Below are positions 1 through 26,540 of a stretch of DNA of 64,000 nt, one piece after another. Every line of letters starts with the position of its first letter. Positions within the stretch are counted from its first letter, which is position 1. The DNA comes from Bryobacterales bacterium (GTDB lineage Bacteria; Acidobacteriota; Terriglobia; Bryobacterales; UBA6623): the NCBI GenBank assembly GCA_965263255.1, contig CBDHHA010000008.1, forward strand, positions 2,945,399-3,009,398, given 5' to 3'. The translations under genes and the position numbers were made by a program. The notes beneath the pieces were generated by a model. That model searched no databases, was not told where the DNA came from, and saw only the letters and a list, made by a program, of their open reading frames with translations.

Positions 1-2088
1 GAGCCTCCGGTCACTTTCGGCGGCGACGTCTTGCCGGTCCTGACCCGCGTGGGCTGCAACGGCGGGAACTGCCACGGGGCTATGAACGGTCAGAACGGAT
101 TCAAGCTCTCCCTGTTCGGCGACCACCCGAACGACGATTACGCGATGATCGTCGATGGGGACGGCGGTCGCCGGCTCGATCTCGGGAACCCCGCCGCGAG
201 CCTGCTCCTGCGCAAGCCGACGTTCCAGGTTTCGCACGGCGGCGGTCACGTCCTCGAGGCGGATTCGGTCGAGTACCGCACGTTGCTCCGCTGGATCACG
301 GGGGGAGCGAAGCGCGTCCCCGAGAGCGACAAGCGCCTCGTCGGGCTCACCGTGCATCCCGAGCACATCGTGCTCCACGGGAAGGCCGCGCGGATCCCTC
401 TCCTTGTCACGGCGCACTATTCGGACGGCACGGAGTCCGACTTCACCCGCCTTGCGTACTTCGACGCACACGACACGACGGTCGCCGAAGTGGACAGCAA
501 TGGCGTCGTCACCTCGCGAGGCCGTGGCGAGACGACCGTACTCGTCCGTGGGCCGGGGGCAGTTGCAGCTGCCCGGATCGGGGTAGTCACCGAGAGGCAC
601 CCGGTCGGCGAGGTCGAATCGCGAAACGTGATCGACCGGCACATCTTTGCCAAGCTCAGGGACCTGCACATCCCCCCATCCCCGCCGGCGGACGACGCCA
701 CGTTCCTGCGAAGGGCGTTCCTCGACATCATCGGCTTGGTGCCGACGGCCGACGAGGTGCGGCGGTTCGTGGCCGATGGCGACCCATCGAAGCGGGTCAA
801 GCTGGTCGACCGGCTCCTCGAGCGGCCGGAGTACGCGGATTTCTGGTCGCTGTACTGGGGCGATCACCTCAACAACACGAAGCAGCTGCTCTACAACAAG
901 GGCCCCTACACGTTCACGCGCTGGCTCTACGAGGCCTTCCGGCGGAACACGCCTTACGACGAGTTCGTGCGCACGCTGCTGACGTCGACCGGGAACATGT
1001 ACGACGCTCCCGAAACGAGCTTCTACCCGCTGATGAAGAAGCCGCTGGATCTGGCGTCCCAGACGAGCCAGCTCTTCCTCGGCATCCGTATCGGCTGCGC
1101 ACGCTGCCACAACCATCCCATGGAGAAGTGGACGCAGGACGACTACAACGGGATGGCTGCGTTCTTCTCCCAGATCCGCTACAAGGGGGGCGTCGGCCCG
1201 CGCAACAACGAGAGGACGCTGTACCTGGACTTCGACCGCGAGTTCTACCACCCCGAGAACGAGCGACACTACCGGCCCAAGGCCCTGGGCGGGCCCTACG
1301 CCGATGCGGGGGATTGGGTGGATCGTCGCGAGAAGCTTGCCGACTGGATGACGGACCCGAGCAACCCCTACTTTAGCCGCGCGATCGTCAACCGCATGTG
1401 GAAGCAGTTCATGGGGCGAGGCTTCGTGGAGCCTGTGGACGACTTCCGGGTCACGAACCCTCCGAGCCACCCCGAGCTGCTGGACTGGCTCGCCCGGGAT
1501 TTCGCCGAGCACGGGTACGACCTGCACCACCTGATCCGTCGGATCACCTCGAGCCGGGCCTACCAGACCACTTCGGTCCCGACCGAGGCGAACCGGGAGG
1601 ACACCACGGCCTACTCGCGCTACGGGGTGCGTCGGCTCACGGCCGAGCAGCTGCTCGACTCCATCTCGCAGGCAACCGGCGTGCCGGAGGACTTCGAGTC
1701 GCTGTATCCGGGCACGAGAGCGGCTCAGCTGCCCGAGCCGGAAGTGCCCTCGTACTTCCTGGACGTATTCGACCGCCCGTCCCGGCAACTGGTGTCCGAC
1801 CGCAACACCACGAACTCCCTCAATCAGGCCCTCCACCTGGCATCGGGCAACGCACTGGATGCCAAGATCCGCCACGAGCGAGGAATCCTCCAGCGGATGC
1901 TCGAGGACGGTCTGTCCACTAGGGAGATTGTCGAGGAGCTATACCTGAGGACTGTCTCGCGGTTCCCTACCCCTCAGGAGCGGGACGAGCTAGCCGGCTT
2001 CGTCGAGGCCGCTGGCTCGACGGACCGGGCCTTGGAAGACATCTTCTGGTCCCTGCTGAATTCCAAGGAGTTCCTCTTCCAGCACTAG
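1..2088 (+). CDS. DUF1549/DUF1553 (PSCyt/PSD-type) domain protein, 5'-truncated by window edge
   Basis: Frame 1 is open from nt 1, and the track ORF at 31 is only the first TTG. Contains the 'GCNGGNCHG' cytochrome-like motif and the DUF1553 signature 'CARCHNHPMEKWTQDDYNGMAAFF'. Family recognised from memory. Confidence 0.85.
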   Translation, partial: EPPVTFGGDVLPVLTRVGCNGGNCHGAMNGQNGFKLSLFGDHPNDDYAMIVDGDGGRRLDLGNPAASLLLRKPTFQVSHGGGHVLEADSVEYRTLLRWITGGAKRVPESDKRLVGLTVHPEHIVLHGKAARIPLLVTAHYSDGTESDFTRLAYFDAHDTTVAEVDSNGVVTSRGRGETTVLVRGPGAVAAARIGVVTERHPVGEVESRNVIDRHIFAKLRDLHIPPSPPADDATFLRRAFLDIIGLVPTADEVRRFVADGDPSKRVKLVDRLLERPEYADFWSLYWGDHLNNTKQLLYNKGPYTFTRWLYEAFRRNTPYDEFVRTLLTSTGNMYDAPETSFYPLMKKPLDLASQTSQLFLGIRIGCARCHNHPMEKWTQDDYNGMAAFFSQIRYKGGVGPRNNERTLYLDFDREFYHPENERHYRPKALGGPYADAGDWVDRREKLADWMTDPSNPYFSRAIVNRMWKQFMGRGFVEPVDDFRVTNPPSHPELLDWLARDFAEHGYDLHHLIRRITSSRAYQTTSVPTEANREDTTAYSRYGVRRLTAEQLLDSISQATGVPEDFESLYPGTRAAQLPEPEVPSYFLDVFDRPSRQLVSDRNTTNSLNQALHLASGNALDAKIRHERGILQRMLEDGLSTREIVEELYLRTVSRFPTPQERDELAGFVEAAGSTDRALEDIFWSLLNSKEFLFQH

Positions 2089-2374
2089 GTCTGCTCGCCG
2101 AGGCCAGTTCGACGGAATTGCGGGTGTCCTGATGCGACAGGGACATGCATGGCTGAGTTTGGCGGATAAGGACCGAGTATCGCTGGGGCGGGCCACGGCT
2201 CGCACACGGGTCCCGCAACGCGAGGATCTCAACCCATAAGTCATTGCTCAATAAGCACTTCTGAGTGCTGGCGGGCAAGCAGCCGAGCAACACTTGACGT
2301 CAGCCGGAGACTGTGCCAACATAATCGTTGGCAACAATTTCATTGGCAACGGTCATGCTGTTAGGAGTTCATCA

Positions 2375-3601
2375 ATGCTGAGAAAAACGGTAGGCAACTG
2401 GGTCGACGGCGATCGATTCTTTGACCGCGAGGCCGATATCGCGGATCTGCGCGAGCGGGTACGAGAGGGCACGCATACTCTGATCACGGCACAGAGAAGA
2501 AAGGGCAAGACAAGCCTCGTGCGCGAACTCTTGCGTCAACTGCATGAAGCGAAGGAAGCCGAATGCATCTTTGTCGATTTGGAAGACGCCAGGGACGCAG
2601 CGGACGCGATTGTCGAAATCGGCTTGCAAACGCGACACATGCAGCCTGTATGGCAGATATTGCTGGACACCGCCGCTCGGACCGTTCAGCATGTCGAGGA
2701 CGTGCAGTTATCCGAATTGAGAATTCGCCTGCGAAACACCATCGATTCCGGCAACTGGAAGCACAAGGGCAACGACCTGTTCAACATCCTGGCCGACCAA
2801 GAGCGGCTAGTGCTCGCGATCGACGAGTTGCCGCTACTGATCAATCGGATCCTCAAGGGTTCCGACAGTCGCAAGACCGAGGCGAGCATCCAGGACGCAG
2901 ACGAGTTCCTCTCCTGGTTGCGCCGGAATGCCCAACAGCACCGAGACAGAATCTGTCTAATTCTCTCCGGCAGCGTCGGCATCGCTCCGATTCTCAAAGA
3001 CGCTGGATTGAGCGCCACGATGAACGTGTTTTCCGCATATGACCTTAGGCCATGGGATACCCCGACCGCATGTCAATGCCTCGCCGAGTTGGCGAGCAGT
3101 TACGATATCGATCTGCCATCGCAGGTGCAAGAGGCCATGTGTCGGCGCCTACGGTCCTGCATTCCTCATCACATCCAGCAATTCTTTGACGCACTTCATC
3201 GCCACCTCAGGTTGCAAGGCAAGCAGAACGCCACGCTTAGAGATGCAGAAGCAGCATACCGGGAGGACATGCTCGGTACTAGAGGACGTATCGACATGGA
3301 TCACTACGAGGACCGGCTGAAGCTAATTCTGGGGATCGATGCGTACAGAGTAGCTCTCGCACTTCTGGCCGAGACTGCAACCACGGGATATCTCGACGCA
3401 GCGGGCATCCGAGCCTATAGCGATAGGCTGCGTGCTTCAGGGGATGGTGGATCTGATCGGATACCGCATGTCATCGACGTACTGGAGCACGACGGCTATC
3501 TAGTGAAGGAGATTGATCGTCACGAATTTGCATCAGGCCTTCTTAGGGACTGGTGGCGCGCTCGTGCAGGTCATGCTTTCCTTCCATTCACTAAAGGATG
3601 A
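2375..3601 (+). CDS. P-loop ATPase (archaeal-ATPase/AAA-like) with C-terminal helical/wHTH-like region
   Basis: ATG 2375 is preceded by AGGAG (2363-2367). N-terminus is 'FFDREADIADLRERV' followed by Walker A-like 'AQRRKGKTSL' and Walker B-like 'LVLAIDELP'. The track start at 2294 (TTG) is probably an extension. Composition is lower GC than the flanks. Confidence 0.7.
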   Translation: MLRKTVGNWVDGDRFFDREADIADLRERVREGTHTLITAQRRKGKTSLVRELLRQLHEAKEAECIFVDLEDARDAADAIVEIGLQTRHMQPVWQILLDTAARTVQHVEDVQLSELRIRLRNTIDSGNWKHKGNDLFNILADQERLVLAIDELPLLINRILKGSDSRKTEASIQDADEFLSWLRRNAQQHRDRICLILSGSVGIAPILKDAGLSATMNVFSAYDLRPWDTPTACQCLAELASSYDIDLPSQVQEAMCRRLRSCIPHHIQQFFDALHRHLRLQGKQNATLRDAEAAYREDMLGTRGRIDMDHYEDRLKLILGIDAYRVALALLAETATTGYLDAAGIRAYSDRLRASGDGGSDRIPHVIDVLEHDGYLVKEIDRHEFASGLLRDWWRARAGHAFLPFTKG

Positions 3602-3634
3602 ACTACTAGGCATCTATCTGAAGTCAACGGCACA

Positions 3635-6115
3635 ATGGGGAAACGTATCGTAAAGTACAACCCTGGCTTCCTCGACGAAGAGGAGCTCGTGAGATCCTTT
3701 TGTGTCCGCACGAATGAGTTTGATCTAATCGTTCAGAGTCTAAGGGAAAGCACAGGCAGGTCGAATTCCCATCAGCTAGTGATCGGCCCGCGTGGGTGCG
3801 GCAAGACGACACTCTTGCTGCGCGTCGCAGCTGAGGTGAACAGGGACGCGAATCTTCGATCCTTCCTGTTCCCGATCATTTTCGCGGAGGAAAGCTATGA
3901 AATTGCGACGTGCGGCGAGTTCTGGTTGCAGTGCCTAGACAATCTAGCGAGCCGAGCCATTCACGGCGAACAGACGAGGGACCTTAGGCTCACGCTTGAA
4001 GAGTTTCGAAAAACTACGGATGATCGCACCCTCGTGGATCGCTGCCTCGGAGCGATCTTGGAGTTCGCCGATCGAGAAGGCAAACGTCTTGTACTGATTG
4101 TAGAGAACTTGAACACGATGTTCGCTGACATCGGCGACCCCGAGGTCGGGTGGCAACTACGCAAAACCCTTCAACACGAACCACGGATCATTTTCCTCGC
4201 TAGTGCAACAGCACGCTTCGAAGAGATTGACAACTCGAGCAGGGCCTTGTACGACATCTTCCAGGTCCATACGCTGAGAGCGTTGGGCCAAGGCGCCTGC
4301 GCTTCACTTTGGAAGCAAGTAGCTGGAAGGCATATCGATCCACGCTTTGCTCGGGCACTTCAAATTCTGACCGGCGGAAATGCTCGCTTGTTAGTGATTG
4401 TCGCTCAGTTCGGCGCACACCTGTCCTTTGCCAATTTGATGCAATCGATGTTGGATCTTGTCGATGACTACACCGAATATTTTAGGGGCCACCTTGAATC
4501 ACTATCGCCCCAAGAGCGTCGTGTCTACCTAGCGCTGGCACGCCTCTGGAGGCCAGCAGCTGCTAGGGACATTTCCGGGCTCGCACGGATTTCTACCAAC
4601 CAATGTAGTGCGATTCTAGGTCGACTCATGCGGCGAGGAGTAGTGTTGCGTGGCGAGGGTCCTAGGCATCGGCAGGAATACTGCTTGGCCGAGCGAATGT
4701 ACAACATCTACTACCTGCTGAGAACCAGCCGGGGTCACGACGGCGTCGTCCAAGCGTTCATCCGGTTCATGGCGGCATACTACGAGGCCTCAGAGCCTTC
4801 AGATATACGTGATGCAATCCGCAGGGCATCTACTAACATCGACGCAAGCAAAAGAGGAATGAGGGAGTCTGTAATCCGGGCTATCTCCCCCCATGTCGGA
4901 ATGGACCTTGCGCATCGGGTGGTGTCGCTGTGCAGGATCGGTCGCTGGGATGAGGCTCTCGAGGCAGTCAAGGAGATCTTGCAGAACTTCGAGGCCAGGA
5001 CGTACCCCGAGGCTGTCTGGCGTCGGGCTCTGGTTGTCTTCCTCCAAGGCTATGCGCTAATGGGTTTGGGCCGCTTGACGGAGGCGCACGCAGCCTTTGA
5101 CACGGCGAACACCGAATTCGAGGCAATCAACACCCCCGAAGCTCGAGAACTCCTTGCGCGGGTACGTTTGGCAAGGGCAGCACTCCTTGCAAGGCAAGGC
5201 TTGTCTGACAAAGTATCGGAGGCGTGTGATTCTCTATCCGATCAGTATGAGTCCAGCAGCGTGCCTGGGGAGATCGAGGTCGCGGCCGAGGCCTTGCTGC
5301 TAAAGGCCCGATCGTTTCAGGAGAGGCGGAAACTCGACGATGCGCTGGAACTCTACAGTCGGGTCGCAACTCTTGTTGAAGCCCTCGATTCAGACGGGGC
5401 GCTCGAACTATGGGCAATGGCTTGGGCAGGGAAAGCAAGGGTCTTGGCCAGCAGCAGCAATGAGGAGATGGTTCACCAAGCCTACGATACTGTGATCGAG
5501 CGCTTCGCACGTGCCAGCCCAACCGAGCCCGCCGAGACTGTCGCCAGAGTGCTTCTGAGCAAGGGAAATCTACTCAGCAGCGAGACTCGCTTCAGGGAGA
5601 GTCTGGAGGTCTACAACCAGCTGGTCAATCGCTATGGAGACAGCGACTCGTCAACGCTGCGCGAACTGGTGGGGTATGGGCTGATCGGGCGATCCAATTC
5701 GGAGCTGTCGCTTGGAAGGGCAGCCGCAGCAGCAACCACAGCTGGCAAGGCCCATCAGATCGCCTCCGCAGATGACTCCGACCTAGCGATTGCGTCAGTG
5801 CTGCAACGTGCGCTAGCGCACCTTGTGGGCGGAAACGTGGAAGACTGCGAGGCTGTTCTCGCGGCCATGCTCGGACTTCTTCCGAAATTCCCGTCTGTGA
5901 CGAGCCCGGCCATTGAGGGCCTCATCGGATTCACGGCTCAGATGGGGCCCCGACCAGTCCTGGAACTGCTCCAAGAGTCCCCCTCCGAGGATCTGCTGCT
6001 TCCATTGACAACGGCCCTGCGGATGGAACTCGGCATTGAGACAAGGGTGGCGGAGGAGGTCCGAGAAGTTGCGAGCGACATCCGACAGGACCTAGCCAAG
6101 CTTCGTGAGCACTGA
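3635..6115 (+). CDS. STAND-like NTPase: P-loop ATPase + winged-helix + C-terminal TPR-like helical repeats
   Basis: Walker A 'GPRGCGKTTLLL' and Walker B-like 'RLVLIVENLN'. MarR/Orc-like wHTH segment 'SPQERRVYLALARLWRPAAARDISGLARISTNQCSAILGRLMRRGVV'. About 400 aa of Ala/Leu-rich TPR-like repeats follow. Lies 33 nt downstream of the previous gene on the same strand. Confidence 0.7.
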   Translation: MGKRIVKYNPGFLDEEELVRSFCVRTNEFDLIVQSLRESTGRSNSHQLVIGPRGCGKTTLLLRVAAEVNRDANLRSFLFPIIFAEESYEIATCGEFWLQCLDNLASRAIHGEQTRDLRLTLEEFRKTTDDRTLVDRCLGAILEFADREGKRLVLIVENLNTMFADIGDPEVGWQLRKTLQHEPRIIFLASATARFEEIDNSSRALYDIFQVHTLRALGQGACASLWKQVAGRHIDPRFARALQILTGGNARLLVIVAQFGAHLSFANLMQSMLDLVDDYTEYFRGHLESLSPQERRVYLALARLWRPAAARDISGLARISTNQCSAILGRLMRRGVVLRGEGPRHRQEYCLAERMYNIYYLLRTSRGHDGVVQAFIRFMAAYYEASEPSDIRDAIRRASTNIDASKRGMRESVIRAISPHVGMDLAHRVVSLCRIGRWDEALEAVKEILQNFEARTYPEAVWRRALVVFLQGYALMGLGRLTEAHAAFDTANTEFEAINTPEARELLARVRLARAALLARQGLSDKVSEACDSLSDQYESSSVPGEIEVAAEALLLKARSFQERRKLDDALELYSRVATLVEALDSDGALELWAMAWAGKARVLASSSNEEMVHQAYDTVIERFARASPTEPAETVARVLLSKGNLLSSETRFRESLEVYNQLVNRYGDSDSSTLRELVGYGLIGRSNSELSLGRAAAAATTAGKAHQIASADDSDLAIASVLQRALAHLVGGNVEDCEAVLAAMLGLLPKFPSVTSPAIEGLIGFTAQMGPRPVLELLQESPSEDLLLPLTTALRMELGIETRVAEEVREVASDIRQDLAKLREH

Positions 6116-6539
6116 CTGTGGTTCGGGCCTTCCGGATCGGGCGCAGACGCTCTTGGGATGTCGGGTTGGGGTCCTGCGCGACACTTCGGTTGGCCGGAAC
6201 AGGGCGCCCGAGGGCCCTTCCATTTCGGGGTTGGCGTGCCGAATCTGAGACACCGGAGTCGTCCGTGGCCTGCTGGCGTCAGCTCGATTTCGAGGTCCCC
6301 GGCCTGGGAACCGTCGCGGCCGTGACCGCCGGAGAGTGAATCGACAGGTATGCTGCGGCAACCCGCTCTGGTGGGGGCCACAAGAGTGTGCGCAGGCAAT
6401 ATAATCAAGGTGCTCATTTCGGGATTGAGCCGCGTCGGGTCTCCGTGTGCGTCCCCCGGGACGACCGTCAGTGGGCCGGCGGCCGTCCAGTCCCGGAGGT
6501 GGATGGAGGTCTCCTCACTTCAGGGATGCAGCGTCAGTC

Positions 6540-7820
6540 ATGCACGTCACGAATCACACATCGCTCTTCGGACGCAGGGATTTTCTGAAGATCGGCTCCC
6601 TCGGCCCGCTGGGACTGACACTGGGCCAGGCCCTGCAGGCCCGCCCCAGCAAGGAAGTCTCGTGCATCCTGGTCTGGCAGAGCGGGGGGTGCCCGCAGCA
6701 GGACACCTTCGACATGAAGCCTGACGCCCCGCTGGAGTACCGCGGGGAGTTCAAGCCGATTCCGACCAACGTGCCCGGCATCCAGGTCTGCGAGCACCTG
6801 CCCCTCACGGCCAGGCAGGCCGACAAGTTCACGATCCTGCGGTCGTTGCGATCTCAGGAGAACAACCACGAGCGGGCGATCAACTACCTCCTGACCGGCT
6901 ACCTGCCCCTGCCGACAGTCGAGTTCCCCAGCATGGGTTCGGTAGTCTCCGAGCGTCTCGGCTCTCGGAACGGCCTGCCACCGTACGTGGCAGTGCCCAA
7001 GACGTTCCCCTCCTACGGGGCGGGCTTCCTCGGTGGGGCGCACAATCCCTACAACTCCGGAGATCCGAACGTTCCCGGCTACCAGGCCCGCGACCTGACG
7101 CTCTCCGCTGATGTCGACTGGTCCCGCCTCGGCGACCGGCGTCGGCTCCTAGCCAGCATGGACAGCAAGTTTAAGGCCATCGAGAGCAGTCCCGAATTCG
7201 GGGCAATGGACTCGTTCTACGAGCAGGCGTACTCACTGCTGAGCTCCCCGGAAGCGAAGAGCGCATTCGACATCGAGGCAGAGCCGCCCGCCTTGCGGGA
7301 GCGATACGGGCGGACGCCAGTCGGGCAGGGATGCCTGCTGGCGCGCCGGCTCGTGGAGTCCGGGGTGCGCTTCGTGACCGTGGCCAAGGGCTGGCTCAAT
7401 TACGACACCCACGGCGACAACTTCAACACGATGAAGAAGGTCCTGCTCCCTGAATTCGACAAGGCCTTCGCAAGCCTCCTCGAGGACCTGGAGCAGCGCG
7501 GAATGCTGGACACGACTCTGGTCATCGCGATGGGCGAGTTCGGCCGCACGCCGAAGGTGAACAGCGCGGCCGGCCGCGACCACCACAAGGACTGCTGGTC
7601 GATCGCACTGGCAGGAGCCGGCATCCCGGGCGGGCGCATTCTCGGAGCGACCGACAAGCACGCCGCCGAGGTGACCGAGCTTCCGGTCGAGCCTGAAGAC
7701 CTGCTGTTCACGCTCTACAGCATTCTGGGCATCGACCCGACGCACGAGTACGACACGCCGCTGCGCCGACCGATCAAGGTCAGCAACGGCGGCAAGATGA
7801 TTCCCGGCCTGCTGGCATGA
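6540..7820 (+). CDS. DUF1501 domain protein (sulfatase-fold, Tat-leader)
   Basis: ATG 6540 places the twin-arginine leader 'FGRRDFLKIGSLG' at the N-terminus. Conserved 'GEFGRTP' and 'GRDHH' motifs are present. The track start at 6447 is an upstream extension. Confidence 0.85.
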   Translation: MHVTNHTSLFGRRDFLKIGSLGPLGLTLGQALQARPSKEVSCILVWQSGGCPQQDTFDMKPDAPLEYRGEFKPIPTNVPGIQVCEHLPLTARQADKFTILRSLRSQENNHERAINYLLTGYLPLPTVEFPSMGSVVSERLGSRNGLPPYVAVPKTFPSYGAGFLGGAHNPYNSGDPNVPGYQARDLTLSADVDWSRLGDRRRLLASMDSKFKAIESSPEFGAMDSFYEQAYSLLSSPEAKSAFDIEAEPPALRERYGRTPVGQGCLLARRLVESGVRFVTVAKGWLNYDTHGDNFNTMKKVLLPEFDKAFASLLEDLEQRGMLDTTLVIAMGEFGRTPKVNSAAGRDHHKDCWSIALAGAGIPGGRILGATDKHAAEVTELPVEPEDLLFTLYSILGIDPTHEYDTPLRRPIKVSNGGKMIPGLLA

Positions 7821-22084: not shown

Positions 22085-25000
22085 TTGCGTCACTCTATCG
22101 CGCTGGCAGTCCTGGTCGGCGCCGCCGCAATGCCAGGCAGCGCCCTCGCGGCAGTGCACCCCGCCACCGAGGTTGTGGCCCGCCGCTGCCTTCCGTGCCA
22201 CGGCCCCGCGCAGCGGATGGGGGGGCTGGACCTGTCCTCGCGACAAGGCGCGCTGGCCGGCGGGGCCCGCGGGCCAGCGATCGCGCCGGCAGACCCCGCG
22301 GCGAGCCTCCTGCTAGCGCGGGTGCTGGCCGAGGAGATGCCGCCGGGCTCGCCCCTGCCGGCCGAGGACAAGCGGCTCCTGCACGAGTGGATCGCCGCCG
22401 GAGCGGAGTGGCCCGGCGTCATCGCCGGTCGCCGGGCCGGGCCGGACTGGTGGTCACTGCAACCCCTGCGCGAACCCGCCCCGCCCCCGGCTGCTTCCGT
22501 CCCGGCAGGATGGAGCGAGTCGCCGATCGACCGCTGGATCTACGCCGCGCTCCAAGCGAAGGGCCTTCGGCCTTCTCCCGCAGCCGAGCGCCGGGACCTG
22601 ATCCGGCGGGTCTCGCTCTCCCTTACCGGCCTTCCCCCGGACCCCGGGGAGTTGAAGGCCTTCCTGGCTGATCATTCGCCCGGCGCCTACGAGAGGCTCG
22701 TGGACCGGCTGCTGGCGTCCCCCCGGTACGGAGAGCGCTGGGCCCGCCACTGGCTGGACGTTGTCCGGTTCGCCGAGAGCGAGGGCTTCGAGCGGGATCT
22801 GCCCCGGGACCATGCGTGGCCGTACCGCGACTACGTGATCCGCAGCTTCAACCAGGACAGGCCCTACCTGCGGTTCGCCAGGGAACAGATCGCCGGCGAC
22901 GTGATCGAACCCGTCACCCGGGACGGAGTCGCTGCGACCGCAATGCTGACTCTCGGCCCGGTGGATGCCATCGGGCTCACCTCGGCCGTTCCCGAAGAGC
23001 GCGCTGCGGTGCGCGAGGATCTCCTGGAGGAGATGCTGGGCACGGTCACCCAGGCATTCCTAGGCCTGACAGTGAACTGCGCCCGCTGCCACGACCACAA
23101 GTTCGACCCGATCAGCCAGGAGGAGTACTACCGCATGAAGGCCGCGTTCCAAGCGGTCTGGCCGCCTACCAAGCCGGTGCCCAGCGCGGGGCTCGACGCG
23201 CTCTTCCCGCACGGCCGGCCGCTGATGTCGGGCGCGGATCGCCGGGACCGCGAGACACGCATCCGGCGGATCGAGAGCCGCTTGCAGCAGATCGAGTCGG
23301 AGACCGGCGGGCTCTACCGAGCCGCCAGACCGGCCGGACCCGAGCGCGAGGCGCCCCGGCCCTTCGCCCGCTGGACGTTTGACACGGACGGCCGGGCCGA
23401 CTTCGCACCGCTCCACCTGGCTCGCGTGGGGCCGGTGCAGCTGGATGCCGGCTCGTTCGGGCTACGCGTGCCCCGCGTGCGGGAGACAGAAGGCACCGGA
23501 CCGGCAGAGGAGGAACCGGAATCGGGGTCCGGCGTGGGCGTCAGCAAGAGGCTGGCCGCCGACATCCGGGAGAAGACGCTCGAGGTCTGGCTCGACGTGC
23601 GGGGCGTACCGGCGAAGGCGGAGACGGTGATGGAAATCCGGGGCCTGAGCGGCTACCGGGGCGCCTCGGTGGACGGAATCCAATACATGGGCGGGGACAC
23701 CCCGCGCTGGGAGAACTTCTCGATCGGCCGATTCAGGTCCCAGGATCCCGGAGCGGGGCCCGAGGAACTCGAGCCCGGCCAGCGGATTCACATCGCGATC
23801 TCGTATGCCGCGGACGGGACGATCCAGCTGTTCCGCGACGGGCGGCCCCTAGGCGAGCCGTACAGGCCGGACGGCGGGATCCCGGCAGGCCGGCTCCAGG
23901 CCTACGGGGCCGGCGACTCCGTGGTGCGATTCCCGGCAAGCCGGCACTTGCGCGTCGCCGAGGCCCGGCTTTACAGCATCCCCCTGACTGCGGCGCAGGT
24001 CCGGGATTCCTGGACGGCGGGAATCGAGGACCACGCCCCGGAAGCCCTCCGGAACCGCATGGCGCCCGGGCAGCGGGACCGGCTGGCATCCCTGGAAGGC
24101 GAGCGCGAGCGCCTCGCCGAGGAGCGCAGGGCGATCCCGGAGCCCGAGCTGGTTCATGCGGCGACGATCCGGGACGGCGAGCCTACCCATTTGCTGCTCC
24201 GCGGGTCGGTCAGCCAGCCGGGCAAGAGGGTCTGGCCGGCCGGACTGGAATGCGTGCAGGGCCTGCCGGCCGACTTCGGGCTCGACCGCGGCGCTTCCGA
24301 GGCCGAGCAGCGCCGGGCGATGGCGGAGTGGATCGCCAGCCCGGCGAACCCGCTTTTCCCCCGGGTGATCGCCAATCGCGTCTGGCACTGGCACTTCGGC
24401 AGCGGATTTGTCGCCAACCCGAGCGACTTCGGCTACAACGGCGGGCAGCCCAGCCATCCTCAGCTGCTGGACTGGCTGGCATCCGAGCTGGTGAGGAACG
24501 GCTGGAGCCTCAAGGCCCTGCACAGGCGGATACTGCTGTCCCGCACCTACCGGCAGGCGTCCCGGTTCGACGCGAGGGCGGCCTCGCTGGATGCGGACAA
24601 CCGGCTGCTGTGGCGTTTCACCCCCCGGCGCATGGAAGCCGAGTCCGTGCGCGACGCGATCCTTGCGGTGAGCGGTGACCTCAACCGAGAGATGCACGGG
24701 CCGAGCTTCCGGCCCTTCGAATTCGGCGAGAGGCGCGGAAGCCTACGCAGCTACGTACTCACGGGCGACGACTCCCCGGCACTGCGCAGGCGCACGGTCT
24801 ACCGGATGAATGTCATCACGGGCGGGGATCCGCTGCTGGAGGCCCTGGACTGCCCGCTCCCTTCCACGAAGACACCTCAGCGGCGCTCGACCACGACGGC
24901 CATGCAGGCGCTGAGCCTGATGAACAATGCATTCGTCGACGCCCGGGCCGAGGGCTTCGCCGCCCGGCTGCGTCGCGAGGCTCCCGATCCGCCCGGGCAG

Positions 25001-25144
25001 GTGCGGCGGGCGTTCGAACTGGCCCTGGGGCGCGTGCCCGGCCCTCGCGAGATGGCGGCAAGCCTTGGTCTCGTCCGAGCGAGCGGGCTCGAGTCCCTCT
25101 GCTGGGGGCTCTTCAACACGAGCGAGTTCCTGTATGTCCGCTAG
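22085..25144 (+). CDS. PSCyt1/DUF1549/DUF1553 domain protein
   Basis: TTG 22085 gives the signal peptide '(M)RHSIALAVLVGAAAMPGSALA'. Contains 'CLPCHG' and 'CARCHDHKFDPISQEEYYRMKAAF'. The C-terminal DUF1553 region ends 'FNTSEFLYVR'. The first ~150 codons of the track ORF are an extension. Confidence 0.85.
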   Translation: MRHSIALAVLVGAAAMPGSALAAVHPATEVVARRCLPCHGPAQRMGGLDLSSRQGALAGGARGPAIAPADPAASLLLARVLAEEMPPGSPLPAEDKRLLHEWIAAGAEWPGVIAGRRAGPDWWSLQPLREPAPPPAASVPAGWSESPIDRWIYAALQAKGLRPSPAAERRDLIRRVSLSLTGLPPDPGELKAFLADHSPGAYERLVDRLLASPRYGERWARHWLDVVRFAESEGFERDLPRDHAWPYRDYVIRSFNQDRPYLRFAREQIAGDVIEPVTRDGVAATAMLTLGPVDAIGLTSAVPEERAAVREDLLEEMLGTVTQAFLGLTVNCARCHDHKFDPISQEEYYRMKAAFQAVWPPTKPVPSAGLDALFPHGRPLMSGADRRDRETRIRRIESRLQQIESETGGLYRAARPAGPEREAPRPFARWTFDTDGRADFAPLHLARVGPVQLDAGSFGLRVPRVRETEGTGPAEEEPESGSGVGVSKRLAADIREKTLEVWLDVRGVPAKAETVMEIRGLSGYRGASVDGIQYMGGDTPRWENFSIGRFRSQDPGAGPEELEPGQRIHIAISYAADGTIQLFRDGRPLGEPYRPDGGIPAGRLQAYGAGDSVVRFPASRHLRVAEARLYSIPLTAAQVRDSWTAGIEDHAPEALRNRMAPGQRDRLASLEGERERLAEERRAIPEPELVHAATIRDGEPTHLLLRGSVSQPGKRVWPAGLECVQGLPADFGLDRGASEAEQRRAMAEWIASPANPLFPRVIANRVWHWHFGSGFVANPSDFGYNGGQPSHPQLLDWLASELVRNGWSLKALHRRILLSRTYRQASRFDARAASLDADNRLLWRFTPRRMEAESVRDAILAVSGDLNREMHGPSFRPFEFGERRGSLRSYVLTGDDSPALRRRTVYRMNVITGGDPLLEALDCPLPSTKTPQRRSTTTAMQALSLMNNAFVDARAEGFAARLRREAPDPPGQVRRAFELALGRVPGPREMAASLGLVRASGLESLCWGLFNTSEFLYVR

Positions 25145-26540
25145 CCGCTCACGCCGGCGCTGGATGCTCGACGCCGCAGGGGGATTCGGGTGGATGGCCC
25201 TGGCAGCGATGCTGTCCGGGGAGGCTCCCGGCTCGCCGACGGGCGCGACGCCCCGGCACGACGCCGCGCGTTTTCGGCCGCGCGCCAAGCGCGTGATCCA
25301 GATCTTCGCCGTCGGCGGAATGAGCCACGTGGACACCCTGGACTACAAGCCCGAGCTGGAGCGCCGGGACGGCGCCCCCTACTCGATGCCGACGTTCTTC
25401 GGACAGGGAGGAAACCTGCGCGGCCCCGCCTGGCGGTTCCGCCAGCGCGGGGAAAGCGGAATCTGGGTGAGCGACTTGCTGCCGGGCCTGGCCCGCCAGG
25501 CGGACCGGCTCACCGTCGTCCGCAGCATGGTGTCGAAGAGCGCGAACCACATGCCGGCAGTGGCGCAGATGAACACTGGATTCATCCTGACGGGCTTTCC
25601 GGCCATGGGCGCTTGGGTGAGCTACGCGCTGGGCTCGGAGAACGAGAACCTGCCCTCCTTCGTCGTCCTCCCGGATCCGAACAGCCATCCGTGGGGCGGC
25701 TCGGCCCAGTGGACCAACGGGTTCCTGCCGGCCGCCGTGCAGGGCACCGCATTCCGGACGCACGGCGGGGGTGCTCCGGTGCCGGACATCGCGCCGCCGC
25801 CCGAATCCCGGCCGGGCGCCCAGGAAGCGGCCCTGGCATGGCTCCGGGAGAGGAACACCGAGTACGCCCGCCGCCATCCCGGCGACTCGAGCCTGGAGGC
25901 CCGGATCCGCAGCTACGAGGTGGCGGCCGGGATGCAGGTGAGCATTCCGAGAATCGCCGATCTGGACAGCGAGCCGGAACTGATGAGGGAACTCTACGGC
26001 TACGGCGAGGAGGCAACCGCGGACTTGGCGCGGAACTGCCTGCTGGCCCGGCGGCTGGTGGAGCGTGGCGTCCGATTCGTGCAGGTCTATCACGGGGGCG
26101 CAGGGAAGAGCTGGGACGCCCACTCCAATCTCGTGAGCAACCACGAGAAGATGGCTCGGGAATACGACCGCCCAGTCGCCGGACTGCTCGAGGACCTGCG
26201 CAGCCGCGGCCTGCTGGAGGACACGCTGGTGATGGGAGTGACCGAGTTCGGGAGGACCCCGGTGTCGCAGGGCACCGGAGAGACCGCGGGCCGGGACCAC
26301 CATCCCCACTGTTTCAGCTGCTGGCTGGCGGGAGGCGGGACGAGACCCGGGTTCCTGTACGGGGAGTCCGACGATCTCGGGTACGAGCCCGCGAGCGCCC
26401 CGGTCACCATCTACGACCTGCACGCCACCGCACTGCGTTTGCTGGGGCTCGATCACGAGCGGCTGACGTTCTATCACAATGGCATCGACCGCCGGCTCAC
26501 CGACGTGCACGGCCGCGTCGTCGAGGAACTGATCGCCTAG
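25134..26540 (+). CDS. DUF1501 domain protein (Tat-leader)
   Basis: ATG 25134 begins 'MSASRSRRRWMLDAAGGFGWMALAAML' (twin-arginine). Contains 'TEFGRTP' and 'GRDHH'. Overlaps the upstream DUF1553 gene by 11 nt. Confidence 0.85.
   Translation: MSASRSRRRWMLDAAGGFGWMALAAMLSGEAPGSPTGATPRHDAARFRPRAKRVIQIFAVGGMSHVDTLDYKPELERRDGAPYSMPTFFGQGGNLRGPAWRFRQRGESGIWVSDLLPGLARQADRLTVVRSMVSKSANHMPAVAQMNTGFILTGFPAMGAWVSYALGSENENLPSFVVLPDPNSHPWGGSAQWTNGFLPAAVQGTAFRTHGGGAPVPDIAPPPESRPGAQEAALAWLRERNTEYARRHPGDSSLEARIRSYEVAAGMQVSIPRIADLDSEPELMRELYGYGEEATADLARNCLLARRLVERGVRFVQVYHGGAGKSWDAHSNLVSNHEKMAREYDRPVAGLLEDLRSRGLLEDTLVMGVTEFGRTPVSQGTGETAGRDHHPHCFSCWLAGGGTRPGFLYGESDDLGYEPASAPVTIYDLHATALRLLGLDHERLTFYHNGIDRRLTDVHGRVVEELIA

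Follow-up and report, generated by a model that had tools for sequence, protein, structure and literature searches.

A mobile two-gene cassette of an AAA+ ATPase and a STAND-type NTPase, with its own promoter and operator array, inserted at a DUF1553/DUF1501 junction in Bryobacterales

A 64,000-nucleotide stretch of the genome of a Bryobacterales bacterium (contig CBDHHA010000008.1, positions 2,945,399 to 3,009,398; hereafter the window) was found to carry a mobile, foreign and self-contained cassette of two genes, which has its own promoter and operator array and occurs across phyla. The first gene (gene 1) encodes an AAA+ ATPase and the second (gene 2) a STAND-type NTPase with a tetratricopeptide repeat (TPR) array. 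In the window, both lie in an insert that separates a DUF1549/DUF1553 gene from its DUF1501 partner (Table 1). The conserved promoter/operator array and the replacement of gene 2 alleles between strains are new findings of this work. The cassette is tentatively read here as an autorepressed NLR-like conflict/defence sensor module, with a probability of roughly 0.42. It stands outside any named system, yet it is not categorically new, being a variant among STAND/NLR-like switches.

A first-pass annotation of the window, made from the letters alone, had taken the whole gap between the DUF1553 and DUF1501 genes (2089-6539) for a low-G+C insertion, probably acquired horizontally. Its open reading frame (ORF) coordinates for the two same-strand genes, and the 33-nt gap between them, match the ORF map, and its hand counts of G+C (25/60, 27/60 and 39/60) were exact. 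When composition was measured in sliding windows, the segment was the outlier of the whole stretch. The G+C content was 0.576 in 2089-6539 compared to 0.672 in the rest of the window, and the ten lowest-G+C windows of 4451 nt in the 64 kb all overlapped the segment (mean of all such windows 0.667, standard deviation 0.026). All 1-kb windows with a G+C content below 0.60 lay within 2001-5500, and the tetranucleotide distance from the window average peaked at the insert (0.39, compared to a mean of 0.17 and a standard deviation of 0.05).

The orthologous site was empty in at least 13 Bryobacterales/Terriglobia relatives (L012, L013, L015, L016, L017, L020, L021, L023, L024, L026, L027, L028 and L030), where 14-47 nt separated the DUF1553 stop from the DUF1501 start. 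The DUF1501 orthologues of the relatives, 70-91% identical, directly adjoin DUF1553, and the orthologues of the left-flank DUF1553 gene are 805-827 aa long. Homology to the relatives at the DNA level ended at the DUF1553 stop codon, position 2089, and the same insert was seen only in a 98%-identical sister strain (L008). The left edge of the annotated insertion thus stood at 2089. The right edge did not, because a promoter-like block 5' of DUF1501, GGCAATATAATCAAGGTGCT, is common to the closest relatives, which places the end of the foreign DNA near 6375 and not at 6539. These findings confirm that the segment from 2090 to approximately 6375 is a horizontally acquired insertion. As the first-pass annotation had stated, neither a tRNA gene nor an integrase was found, and candidate flanking direct or inverted repeats were unconvincing (best inverted pair 24 nt, with 71% complementarity). 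The ORFs in the tail of the insert (6116-6375) had no Pfam match and the tail had no Rfam match; no Rfam family was found in the whole island. The GGCAATATAATCAAGGTGCT block is confined to the clade with an opened DUF1553/DUF1501 junction and is probably a promoter that would allow DUF1501 to be expressed independently of DUF1553. A perfect TATAAT is present in this block, approximately 130-145 nt upstream of DUF1501.

In the clade closest to the window (DUF1501 identity 90-91%), other material occupied the junction. Unrelated spacers of 875 nt and 578 nt were found at the same junction in L009 and L010, respectively. In L011, a Bryobacterales metagenome-assembled genome (91% identical), the junction was occupied by a RES toxin and an Xre/MbcA/ParS antitoxin (L011:8596-9549; Pfam 6.6e-26 and 4.1e-9), and in L029 (OZ241924.1) the region upstream of DUF1501 was rearranged. 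This makes the DUF1553/DUF1501 junction a local hot spot of accessory cargo in Bryobacterales. In L029 (L029:1170-8701), no DUF1553 partner was present within 10 kb upstream of DUF1501 and two paralogous ORFs of approximately 1033 aa were found instead. A divergent copy of the cassette is located approximately 130 kb away in this genome (L149).

The two genes had been regarded in the first-pass annotation as a paired module, and this was borne out by their occurrence elsewhere. The analysis covered 75 metagenomic or genomic loci with 600 nt or more of sequence beyond a gene 1 homologue. A homologue of gene 2 followed on the same strand in every locus (75/75), after a gap of 4-46 nt, and the neighbourhoods were unrelated. 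In the reverse direction, gene 1 was found upstream of the gene 2 homologue in both of the two loci looked up independently. These findings show that gene 1 and gene 2 form an obligate, self-contained pair. No third gene recurred alongside: among 150 neighbouring ORFs from 32 non-redundant loci no Pfam family occurred more than three times, and no recurrent neighbour family was detected when the same ORFs were compared by all-against-all BLAST.

The pair was present in hosts of 39-69% G+C and at different chromosomal sites in related genomes, and in 19 of 23 loci its G+C content was lower than that of its flanks (median difference -3.3 points, Wilcoxon p=0.0016). The gene 1 family was found in Acidobacteriota, Chloroflexota, Proteobacteria-labelled records and many environmental metagenomes; no match to gene 1 was obtained in PLSDB plasmids, INPHARED phages or IMG/VR contigs. 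Mobile or conflict-type contexts were frequent (AbiEii, a type I restriction fragment, the insertion sequence families IS1595, IS3 and IS110, a serine recombinase, TraG and HTH_3/DUF6932), and purely metabolic contexts were found elsewhere. Transposases of the IS1595, IS3 and IS110 families directly adjoin the cassette in several unrelated genomes (L144:13903-14919, L148:8564-9675, L006:1337-1864 and L003:15449-16300), with no single family recurring among them.

Gene 1 encodes an AAA+ ATPase of the archaeal ATPase_2/Orc-Cdc6 type with a C-terminal DUF234-like winged helix. Its motifs follow one another in the order FFDRE, Walker A RRKGKTS, canonical Walker B AIDE, an 'SGSVG' strand and a 'PHH' lid motif, and the C-terminal winged helix carries the conserved motif 'LEHDGYL...F.S.LL.DWW'. 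The Pfam model AAA_22 matched with 28.8 bits (cut-off 27), and ATPase_2 (PF01637) matched with 28.4 bits, under its gathering cut-off of 33.2; a precomputed PF01637 match is present for many homologues. When the AlphaFold2 (AF2) model of gene 1 (predicted local distance difference test score, pLDDT, 78.8) was searched with Foldseek, the closest PDB folds were 2qen (3.7e-10) and 2fna (3.3e-9), followed by Cdc6/Orc1 (E 3.7e-10 to 6e-8 for the set), with template modelling scores (TM-scores) of only 0.26-0.42. More than 1,700 relatives were found in a 90%-clustered database, and relatives more than 50% identical occurred across records labelled Bryobacterales, Acidobacteria, Chloroflexota and Gammaproteobacteria. 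An exhaustive profile search gave 512 clusters at 50% identity (E<=1e-30). The full-length members were all approximately 400-430 aa long and stand-alone, with no fused domain.

Gene 2 encodes an NTPase of the STAND type. Behind the NTPase part come a TrmB-like winged helix-turn-helix (wHTH, residues ~290-350), a TPR array (~400-700) and a helical C-terminus that is conserved. Its Walker A motif is intact (GPRGCGKT in the window, GPRGxGKT in the family; residues 51-58), and its Walker B motif is invariant and non-canonical (LIVEN, or 'VEN'; E157-N158), with Glu for the usual Asp and Asn for the catalytic acid. Other conserved motifs were a STAND-like 'SATSR' strand (SATxR sensor) and a 'GGxPR' lid motif (GGxxR). 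Pfam matches were obtained to AAA_16 (2.1e-7), TrmB (3.6e-5), TPR_2 (5.3e-7), nSTAND5 (7.5e-6) and an ORC-CDC6-like model (5.9e-6), those to nSTAND1 and nSTAND5 being weak. The wHTH pattern ER.VY..LA...S..L.RL..RG.V, a TrmB/MarR signature, was conserved across 47 loci, and the helical tail follows the pattern 'LLLPL.TAL..ELG...RVA.EV.EVA.DIR.DL'. In the AF2 model (pLDDT 75.7), residues 400-826 formed all-helical repeats with a pLDDT of 80-95, and the closest PDB fold was 6mfv, a STAND-TPR protein (Foldseek E 1.3e-9). The Pfam and AF2/Foldseek results agree with the first-pass annotation, both products being P-loop NTPases that include winged-helix parts and gene 2 being STAND-like. The invariant, unusual Walker B of gene 2 had escaped that annotation, as had the promoter/operator array and the replacement of sensor alleles between strains. 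The NTPase modules of gene 1 and gene 2 were alignable (hhalign E 1.5e-4 over 207 columns, probability 51%) and are distant paralogues.

More than 3,000 relatives of gene 2 were found, approximately 500 to 1446 aa long, and their length varied through the number of TPRs alone; the long homologues matched TPR_MalT with 47 bits (cut-off 45). The 826-aa product in the window is complete and has just few repeats, because the conserved tail is present. Since Walker A lies at residues 51-58, there is no room for an N-terminal effector in gene 2. No effector domain was found in gene 2 of the window, in the six long homologues scanned or in the relatives of gene 1, and the earlier reading that no nuclease, TIR, SIR2 or protease effector is encoded therefore holds for both proteins and for the homologues examined. 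A Card1/DUF1887 nuclease, which appeared in precomputed lists for the long gene 2 homologues, proved to be a summed TPR-repeat artefact (0 significant stretches on direct scan). No match to a LuxR/GerE domain was obtained in gene 2, where the C-terminus is the conserved helical cap, and Tandem Repeats Finder (TRF) detected no DNA-level tandem repeats in the TPR region of the window or of L072.

Neither protein was assigned to a named system by PADLOC, NCBIfam or Pfam models, as the first-pass annotation had anticipated. The PADLOC matches were at the level of the P-loop only (mad8, 1e-5 over 79 residues; for gene 2 only mad8, 5e-4 over 29), and nothing came near the NCBIfam cut-offs (best gene 2 match 28.7 bits, cut-off 75).

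The sole DNA similarity shared across loci in the flanks of the island was an array of palindromic units between the promoter and the start of gene 1. Repeated GTTG(G/C)CAAC-like words were first noticed by inspecting the upstream regions. The unit is a 14-bp palindrome, CAACA-N4-TGTTG (CAAC-N6-GTTG), with the consensus CAACAAWWTTGTTG, and the units follow one another in a strict 15-bp register. The core TTG[GC]CAA was found 11.9 times per kb in the 120 nt before gene 1 compared to 0.20 times per kb elsewhere. Measured start to start from CAAC to GTTG, distances of exactly 10, 25 and 40 nt occurred 76, 31 and 7 times, respectively; from CAAC to CAAC, distances of exactly 15 and 30 nt occurred 41 and 9 times. 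The background was approximately zero for both. In-phase units were present in all of the 47 loci with enough sequence upstream of gene 1, within approximately 85 nt of its start (two units in 37 loci, three in 9 and four in one), and the array ended 8-42 nt before the start codon. A promoter with CAAC-N6-GTTG units was also found upstream of gene 1 in six further loci. No double unit was found elsewhere in 537 kb, and the array in the window was unique within the 64 kb (0.13 expected). A description of this operator was not found in the searchable literature.

In most of the 47 loci, an exact TTGACA -35 element was found at a fixed distance from the array, together with a TATAAT-like -10 element. 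The latter starts 8 nt before the first unit in 17 loci, with the unit following approximately 2 nt after the -10, or it overlaps the first unit, as in the window. A generic promoter/terminator scan missed the TTGACG promoter of the window because its -10 is non-consensus. A motif resembling a ribosome-binding site (RBS) lay between the array and the start codon in 36 of the 47 loci. The possibility that the array is translated as an N-terminal extension was rejected, as in-frame stops were present in 28 of the 47 loci and the phase was random (13/17/17). This layout is that of a repressible promoter, and we infer autoregulation by a DNA-binding domain of the cassette itself. The binder is most plausibly encoded by the cassette because the DNA motif is conserved across phyla and is transferred together with the genes. 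The TrmB-like wHTH of gene 2 is the favoured candidate because its recognition helix is conserved, the equivalent helix of gene 1 being acidic, hydrophobic and partly variable.

Arrays borne by phages were also considered and rejected. Fifteen exact double-unit matches were obtained in viral contigs, nearly all of which were 15-nt coding tandem repeats or 'NKxV' peptide repeats; none adjoined a cassette gene, and those in L137 and L138/L141 were ambiguous. These phage-like IMG/VR contigs carry three to four CAACA-N4-TGTTG units at 15-16-bp spacing (L137:850-904 and L138:945-1010, the latter identical to L141 in reverse), and one of the two arrays is intergenic, directly after a TATAAT, with no cassette gene nearby. 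They could be due to chance, or could be the operator of a related repressor, or a target or decoy. Inside the insert of the window, approximately 120 nt 5' of gene 1, there is also a perfect palindrome, AGCACT-TCTG-AGTGCT (2254-2269). With arms similar to CIRCE half-sites but a spacing that does not fit, it may be another operator, or may form a small hairpin or terminator downstream of DUF1553.

The cassette was found with a broken gene 1 in two loci. In the sister strain L008, gene 1 had suffered an in-frame deletion of 819 nt (273 codons) bounded by CTGGA microhomology, which corresponds approximately to 2668-3479 of the window and leaves a 135-aa remnant (L008:9560-9967), and in L150 gene 1 was split into ORFs of 185 and 250 aa. 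Gene 2 was intact in both. These broken copies reflect either repeated loss or long-read assembly errors; taken as loss and splitting, they show that turnover of the cassette is fast. The loss of 273 codons in a strain 98% identical would fit the view that the insert in this genome is a decaying passenger with no function at present, as would the degenerate third operator unit and the ratio of nonsynonymous to synonymous substitution rates (dN/dS) between the window and L008, which was somewhat higher for gene 2 (0.27) than for the flanking genes (0.13-0.16). Such decay is improbable, however. Both ORFs of the window are intact, the invariant family residues checked are all present in gene 1 and in gene 2, a dN/dS of 0.27 still denotes purifying selection, and the promoter, two good operator units and the RBS have been retained.

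The same loci bear on the idea that the cassette is a selfish addiction or maintenance module, or the remnant of a replication or partition unit, in which Orc/Cdc6-like initiators would act on iteron-like repeats. Cdc6/Orc1 initiators in complex with origin DNA (2qby) are similar to both proteins, the regularly spaced repeats are like iterons, and the cassette is mobile, GC-poor and often found beside insertion sequences. Yet the array always lies between the promoter and the RBS of gene 1, which is the geometry of an operator and not of an origin, and no replicase, integrase or partition gene recurs alongside. The cassette was not found in the plasmid and phage collections searched, and a deletion of gene 1 can leave gene 2 intact. 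That gene 1 has been lost or split beside an intact gene 2 argues against its being the antidote to a toxic gene 2, and we consider an addiction or replication unit very unlikely.

Replacement of the sensor was observed between L144 and L145, two complete genomes in which the cassette has the same neighbourhood. The DNA of gene 1 was 100% identical and the flanks differed by 0-2%, whereas the mismatch in gene 2 rose from 1.6% at the 5' end up to 20% in the TPR region and fell to 0.2% just past the stop codon (difference in gene 2, 7.6-20%). Gene 2 of L145 has two extra 43-aa repeats (L144:11266-13767 compared to L145:11266-14025). The synonymous divergence (dS) of gene 2 was 0.18-0.36, and dN/dS was 0.13 for the NTPase and 0.20 for the winged helix, compared to 0.49 and 0.45 for the TPR part and the tail, respectively. 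Because dS was also high, the difference is due to the import of a divergent allele and not to local hypermutation. These findings show that the TPR sensor of gene 2 is the variable, recombining part of the cassette. A constant partner combined with an exchangeable, length-variable sensor is what is expected of a recognition module under diversifying pressure. A third length variant of gene 2, with a frameshifted C-terminus, was seen in L146, an assembly with a coverage of only 7x.

A signal-responsive pair of transcription factors with no role in defence would account for part of the evidence. Gene 2 would then be a MalT/PH0952-like STAND regulator, its TPRs binding a metabolite or protein and its wHTH binding arrays of DNA sites. 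Gene 1 would assist as an AAA+ remodeller, and the pair would control itself and unlinked host genes. The palindromic operator array at the cassette promoter, the TrmB-like wHTH with its conserved recognition helix, the STAND-TPR protein 6mfv as closest structure, the strong conservation of gene 1, the mostly housekeeping neighbours and the failure to find an effector domain all agree with such a pair. In contrast, the cassette moves with no cargo or target genes, and neither the 537 kb of flanking DNA nor the 64-kb window contained a second array. Its distribution is patchy, close relatives having an empty site, and it is compositionally foreign in most hosts. Moreover, the sensor allele was replaced between near-identical strains, and a relative (L011) carries a toxin-antitoxin pair at the same junction. 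On balance a non-defence regulator is rather unlikely, though it ranks next after the conflict/defence reading; part of the probability is assigned to none of the four readings considered.

The reading as an autorepressed conflict/defence sensor module draws on the mobility of the cassette, the obligate pairing, the paralogy and folds of the two NTPases, their Walker motifs, the promoter and operator array and the diversified sensor, and it has two precedents. A role as counter-invader systems has been predicted for mobile two-gene operons of paired STAND NTPases with one eroded partner (Kaur, Iyer, Burroughs & Aravind 2021, PMC8195603, section 15), and TPR-bearing STANDs are established sensors of phage proteins (Lee et al. 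2026, PMC13581612). Several points weigh against it. The antiviral STAND proteins compared carry an effector domain (PMC13581612), and none was found in any homologue of the cassette examined. With a mean column identity of 64% across phyla, gene 1 is conserved to a degree that is unusual for a defence gene. The cassette is absent from the phage and plasmid collections searched, and no significant match to a PADLOC or NCBIfam defence model was obtained. Gene 1 was deleted (L008) or split (L150) beside an intact gene 2, and so either the pair decays easily or gene 2 is able to stand alone. The link to defence islands is weak: a location in such islands, raised by the first-pass annotation, was not clearly borne out, as the neighbours were heterogeneous, with only some defence-type or mobile-element genes, and most of the 150 were housekeeping-like. 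The PADLOC matches among them were few and partly generic; those to mad2 and mad3 (3/150 each) were dismissed as probably generic because no neighbour family recurs. Nothing relevant was found in the literature on Sll1717, PF01637 or DUF234 in defence, or on effector-less STANDs.

If the cassette is such a sensor module, it may work as follows. The two paralogous NTPases would form a hetero-complex, with gene 1 as the hydrolysis-competent AAA+ partner and gene 2 as a nucleotide-binding switch, a role proposed because the catalytic residue of its Walker B motif is replaced by Asn. In the resting state, a winged helix of the cassette, most likely the TrmB-like wHTH of gene 2, would sit on the array over the -10 element and the start site, keeping the operon tightly repressed. 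The TPR array would receive the ligand, which would probably be a protein from an invading genetic element, by analogy with antiviral STAND/NLR-like proteins. Ligand and ATP would then lead to oligomerisation and to release from the operator. The output would most likely be exerted directly on DNA by the AAA+/winged-helix complex, or else through a host factor, as no enzyme domain is present; this step from sensing to output is the weakest part of the scheme. In its most specific form, the cassette would be a widespread and so far undescribed type of effector-less immune module, in which a DNA-binding STAND receptor and its Orc/Cdc6-like partner are silenced on the CAAC-N6-GTTG array and, on recognition of an invader by the exchangeable TPR sensor, act on nucleic acid, for example as an ATP-driven DNA assembly that blocks replication or transcription, with no nuclease, NADase or protease involved. 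This specific form is speculative, and we hold it to be unlikely as it stands.

Table 1. Coordinates of the insert, its genes and regulatory elements, and the adjoining host features (positions in the window)
Feature	Position	Strand	Basis or remark
DUF1549/DUF1553 (PSCyt2/PSD1) gene, 3' part, left flank	31-2088	+	Pfam PSCyt2 2.5e-50, PSD1 6.5e-53; start precedes the window
Horizontally acquired insert, ~4.3 kb	2090-6375	+	Low G+C, empty site in relatives; right end approximate
Predicted σ70-type promoter of the cassette	2294-2324	+	-35 TTGACG 2294-2299; -10 CAACAT 2317-2322 or CATAAT 2319-2324, overlapping the first unit
Putative operator array, three 14-bp palindromic units in 15-bp register	2317-2360	.	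Conserved across loci
Operator unit 1, CAACATAATCGTTG	2317-2330	.	Array unit
Operator unit 2, CAACAATTTCATTG	2332-2345	.	Array unit
Operator unit 3, CAACGGTCATGCTG, degenerate	2347-2360	.	Array unit
Predicted ribosome-binding site AGGAG of gene 1	2363-2367	+	Sequence reading
Gene 1, 408 aa	2375-3601	+	ORF list
Gene 2, 826 aa	3635-6115	+	33-nt gap after gene 1
Winged helix-turn-helix of gene 2, candidate operator-binding domain	4502-4684	+	Residues ~290-350; TrmB and DUF7342 Pfam matches
3' non-coding tail of the insert	6116-6375	.	Homology only to sister strain L008 among the loci compared
Host promoter-like block GGCAATATAATCAAGGTGCT 5' of DUF1501	6395-6414	+	Common to window, L009, L010, L011 and L029
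DUF1501 gene, right flank	6540-7820	+	Pfam DUF1501 1.7e-103

The second pair of the window, which had been used by the first-pass annotation as an internal control for tight pairing, was confirmed by Pfam (22085-25144, DUF1549/DUF1553; 25134-26540, DUF1501). The DUF1549/DUF1553 gene of this control pair overlaps its DUF1501 partner and has an extra N-terminal PSCyt1 (Planctomycete cytochrome c) domain; the N-terminus of the DUF1553 protein of the first pair falls outside the window.

In the work compared here, those prokaryotic STAND/NLR-like proteins that have been characterised as immune sensors combine a repeat sensor with a fused killing domain. The cassette differs from them in having no effector domain, a second AAA+ partner, a winged helix that looks like one of the DNA-binding type, and a promoter and operator of its own that accompany it across phyla. 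Should it prove to be a defence system, it would suggest that the output of NLR-like sensors can be non-enzymatic or directed at DNA; should it prove to be a regulator, it would be an uncommon example of a mobile, self-contained STAND switch. The analysis has defined the operator (consensus CAACAAWWTTGTTG, 15-bp register), a candidate domain for binding it, the Walker motifs and natural sensor alleles, and the family, with approximately 512 clusters at 50% identity, is large enough for ecological relevance.

The cassette is not a member of any of the named systems compared, because in each case it fails on at least one of the defining features tested. With the Avs/AVAST antiviral STANDs and the bacterial NLR-like sensors (PMC13581612), gene 2 shares a STAND NTPase, a winged helix and a long TPR-like sensor of variable length; like Avs it is mobile, and its sensor is the fast-diverging part. 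Unlike Avs, gene 2 has neither an N- nor a C-terminal effector, its P-loop beginning at residue 51, and the cassette has a separate AAA+ partner gene, an 'EN' Walker B motif, a TrmB-like winged helix predicted to bind DNA and a dedicated operator array. No PADLOC Avs model matched the cassette.

The nSTAND2 operon (PMC8195603), like the cassette, is mobile and consists of two genes for NTPases of the STAND/Orc-Cdc6 clade. One nSTAND2 partner has eroded NTP-binding motifs and carries GT4 or HEPN as a fused, variable effector (PMC8195603). In gene 2 of the cassette, Walker B reads 'EN' instead of 'DE/DD', an alteration that would point to a hetero-oligomer, but Walker A is intact. No GT4, HEPN or other effector was found in the homologues of the cassette scanned, the variable part is the TPR array, and a conserved operator array is present.

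The archaeal ATPase_2/DUF234 proteins PAB2304 (2qen) and SSO1545 (2fna), and Orc1/Cdc6, share with gene 1 the AAA+ core, the lid and the C-terminal winged helix. Gene 1 differs from them in falling under the PF01637 cut-off, in having no origin context and in being always paired with gene 2. The PAB2304 and SSO1545 proteins are not known to have a function.

In the order of NTPase, winged helix and TPR sensor, gene 2 is like the MalT/PH0952-type STAND regulators with TPR (SUPR) sensors (6mfv). MalT binds to arrays of repeated boxes in a ligand- and ATP-dependent manner. Unlike regulators of this type, gene 2 has no C-terminal LuxR-type DNA-binding domain and is accompanied by an AAA+ partner gene, the cassette is mobile and compositionally foreign, and the only array found is at the promoter of the cassette itself, placed as a repressor site would be. 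Autoregulated toxin-antitoxin and defence operons, such as the RES-Xre pair of L011, differ from the cassette in that they consist of a small toxin and an antitoxin and not of large NTPases, and in that gene 1 of the cassette can be lost while gene 2 stays intact. They resemble it in being small mobile operons at the same type of hot spot, with palindromic operators placed over their own promoter.

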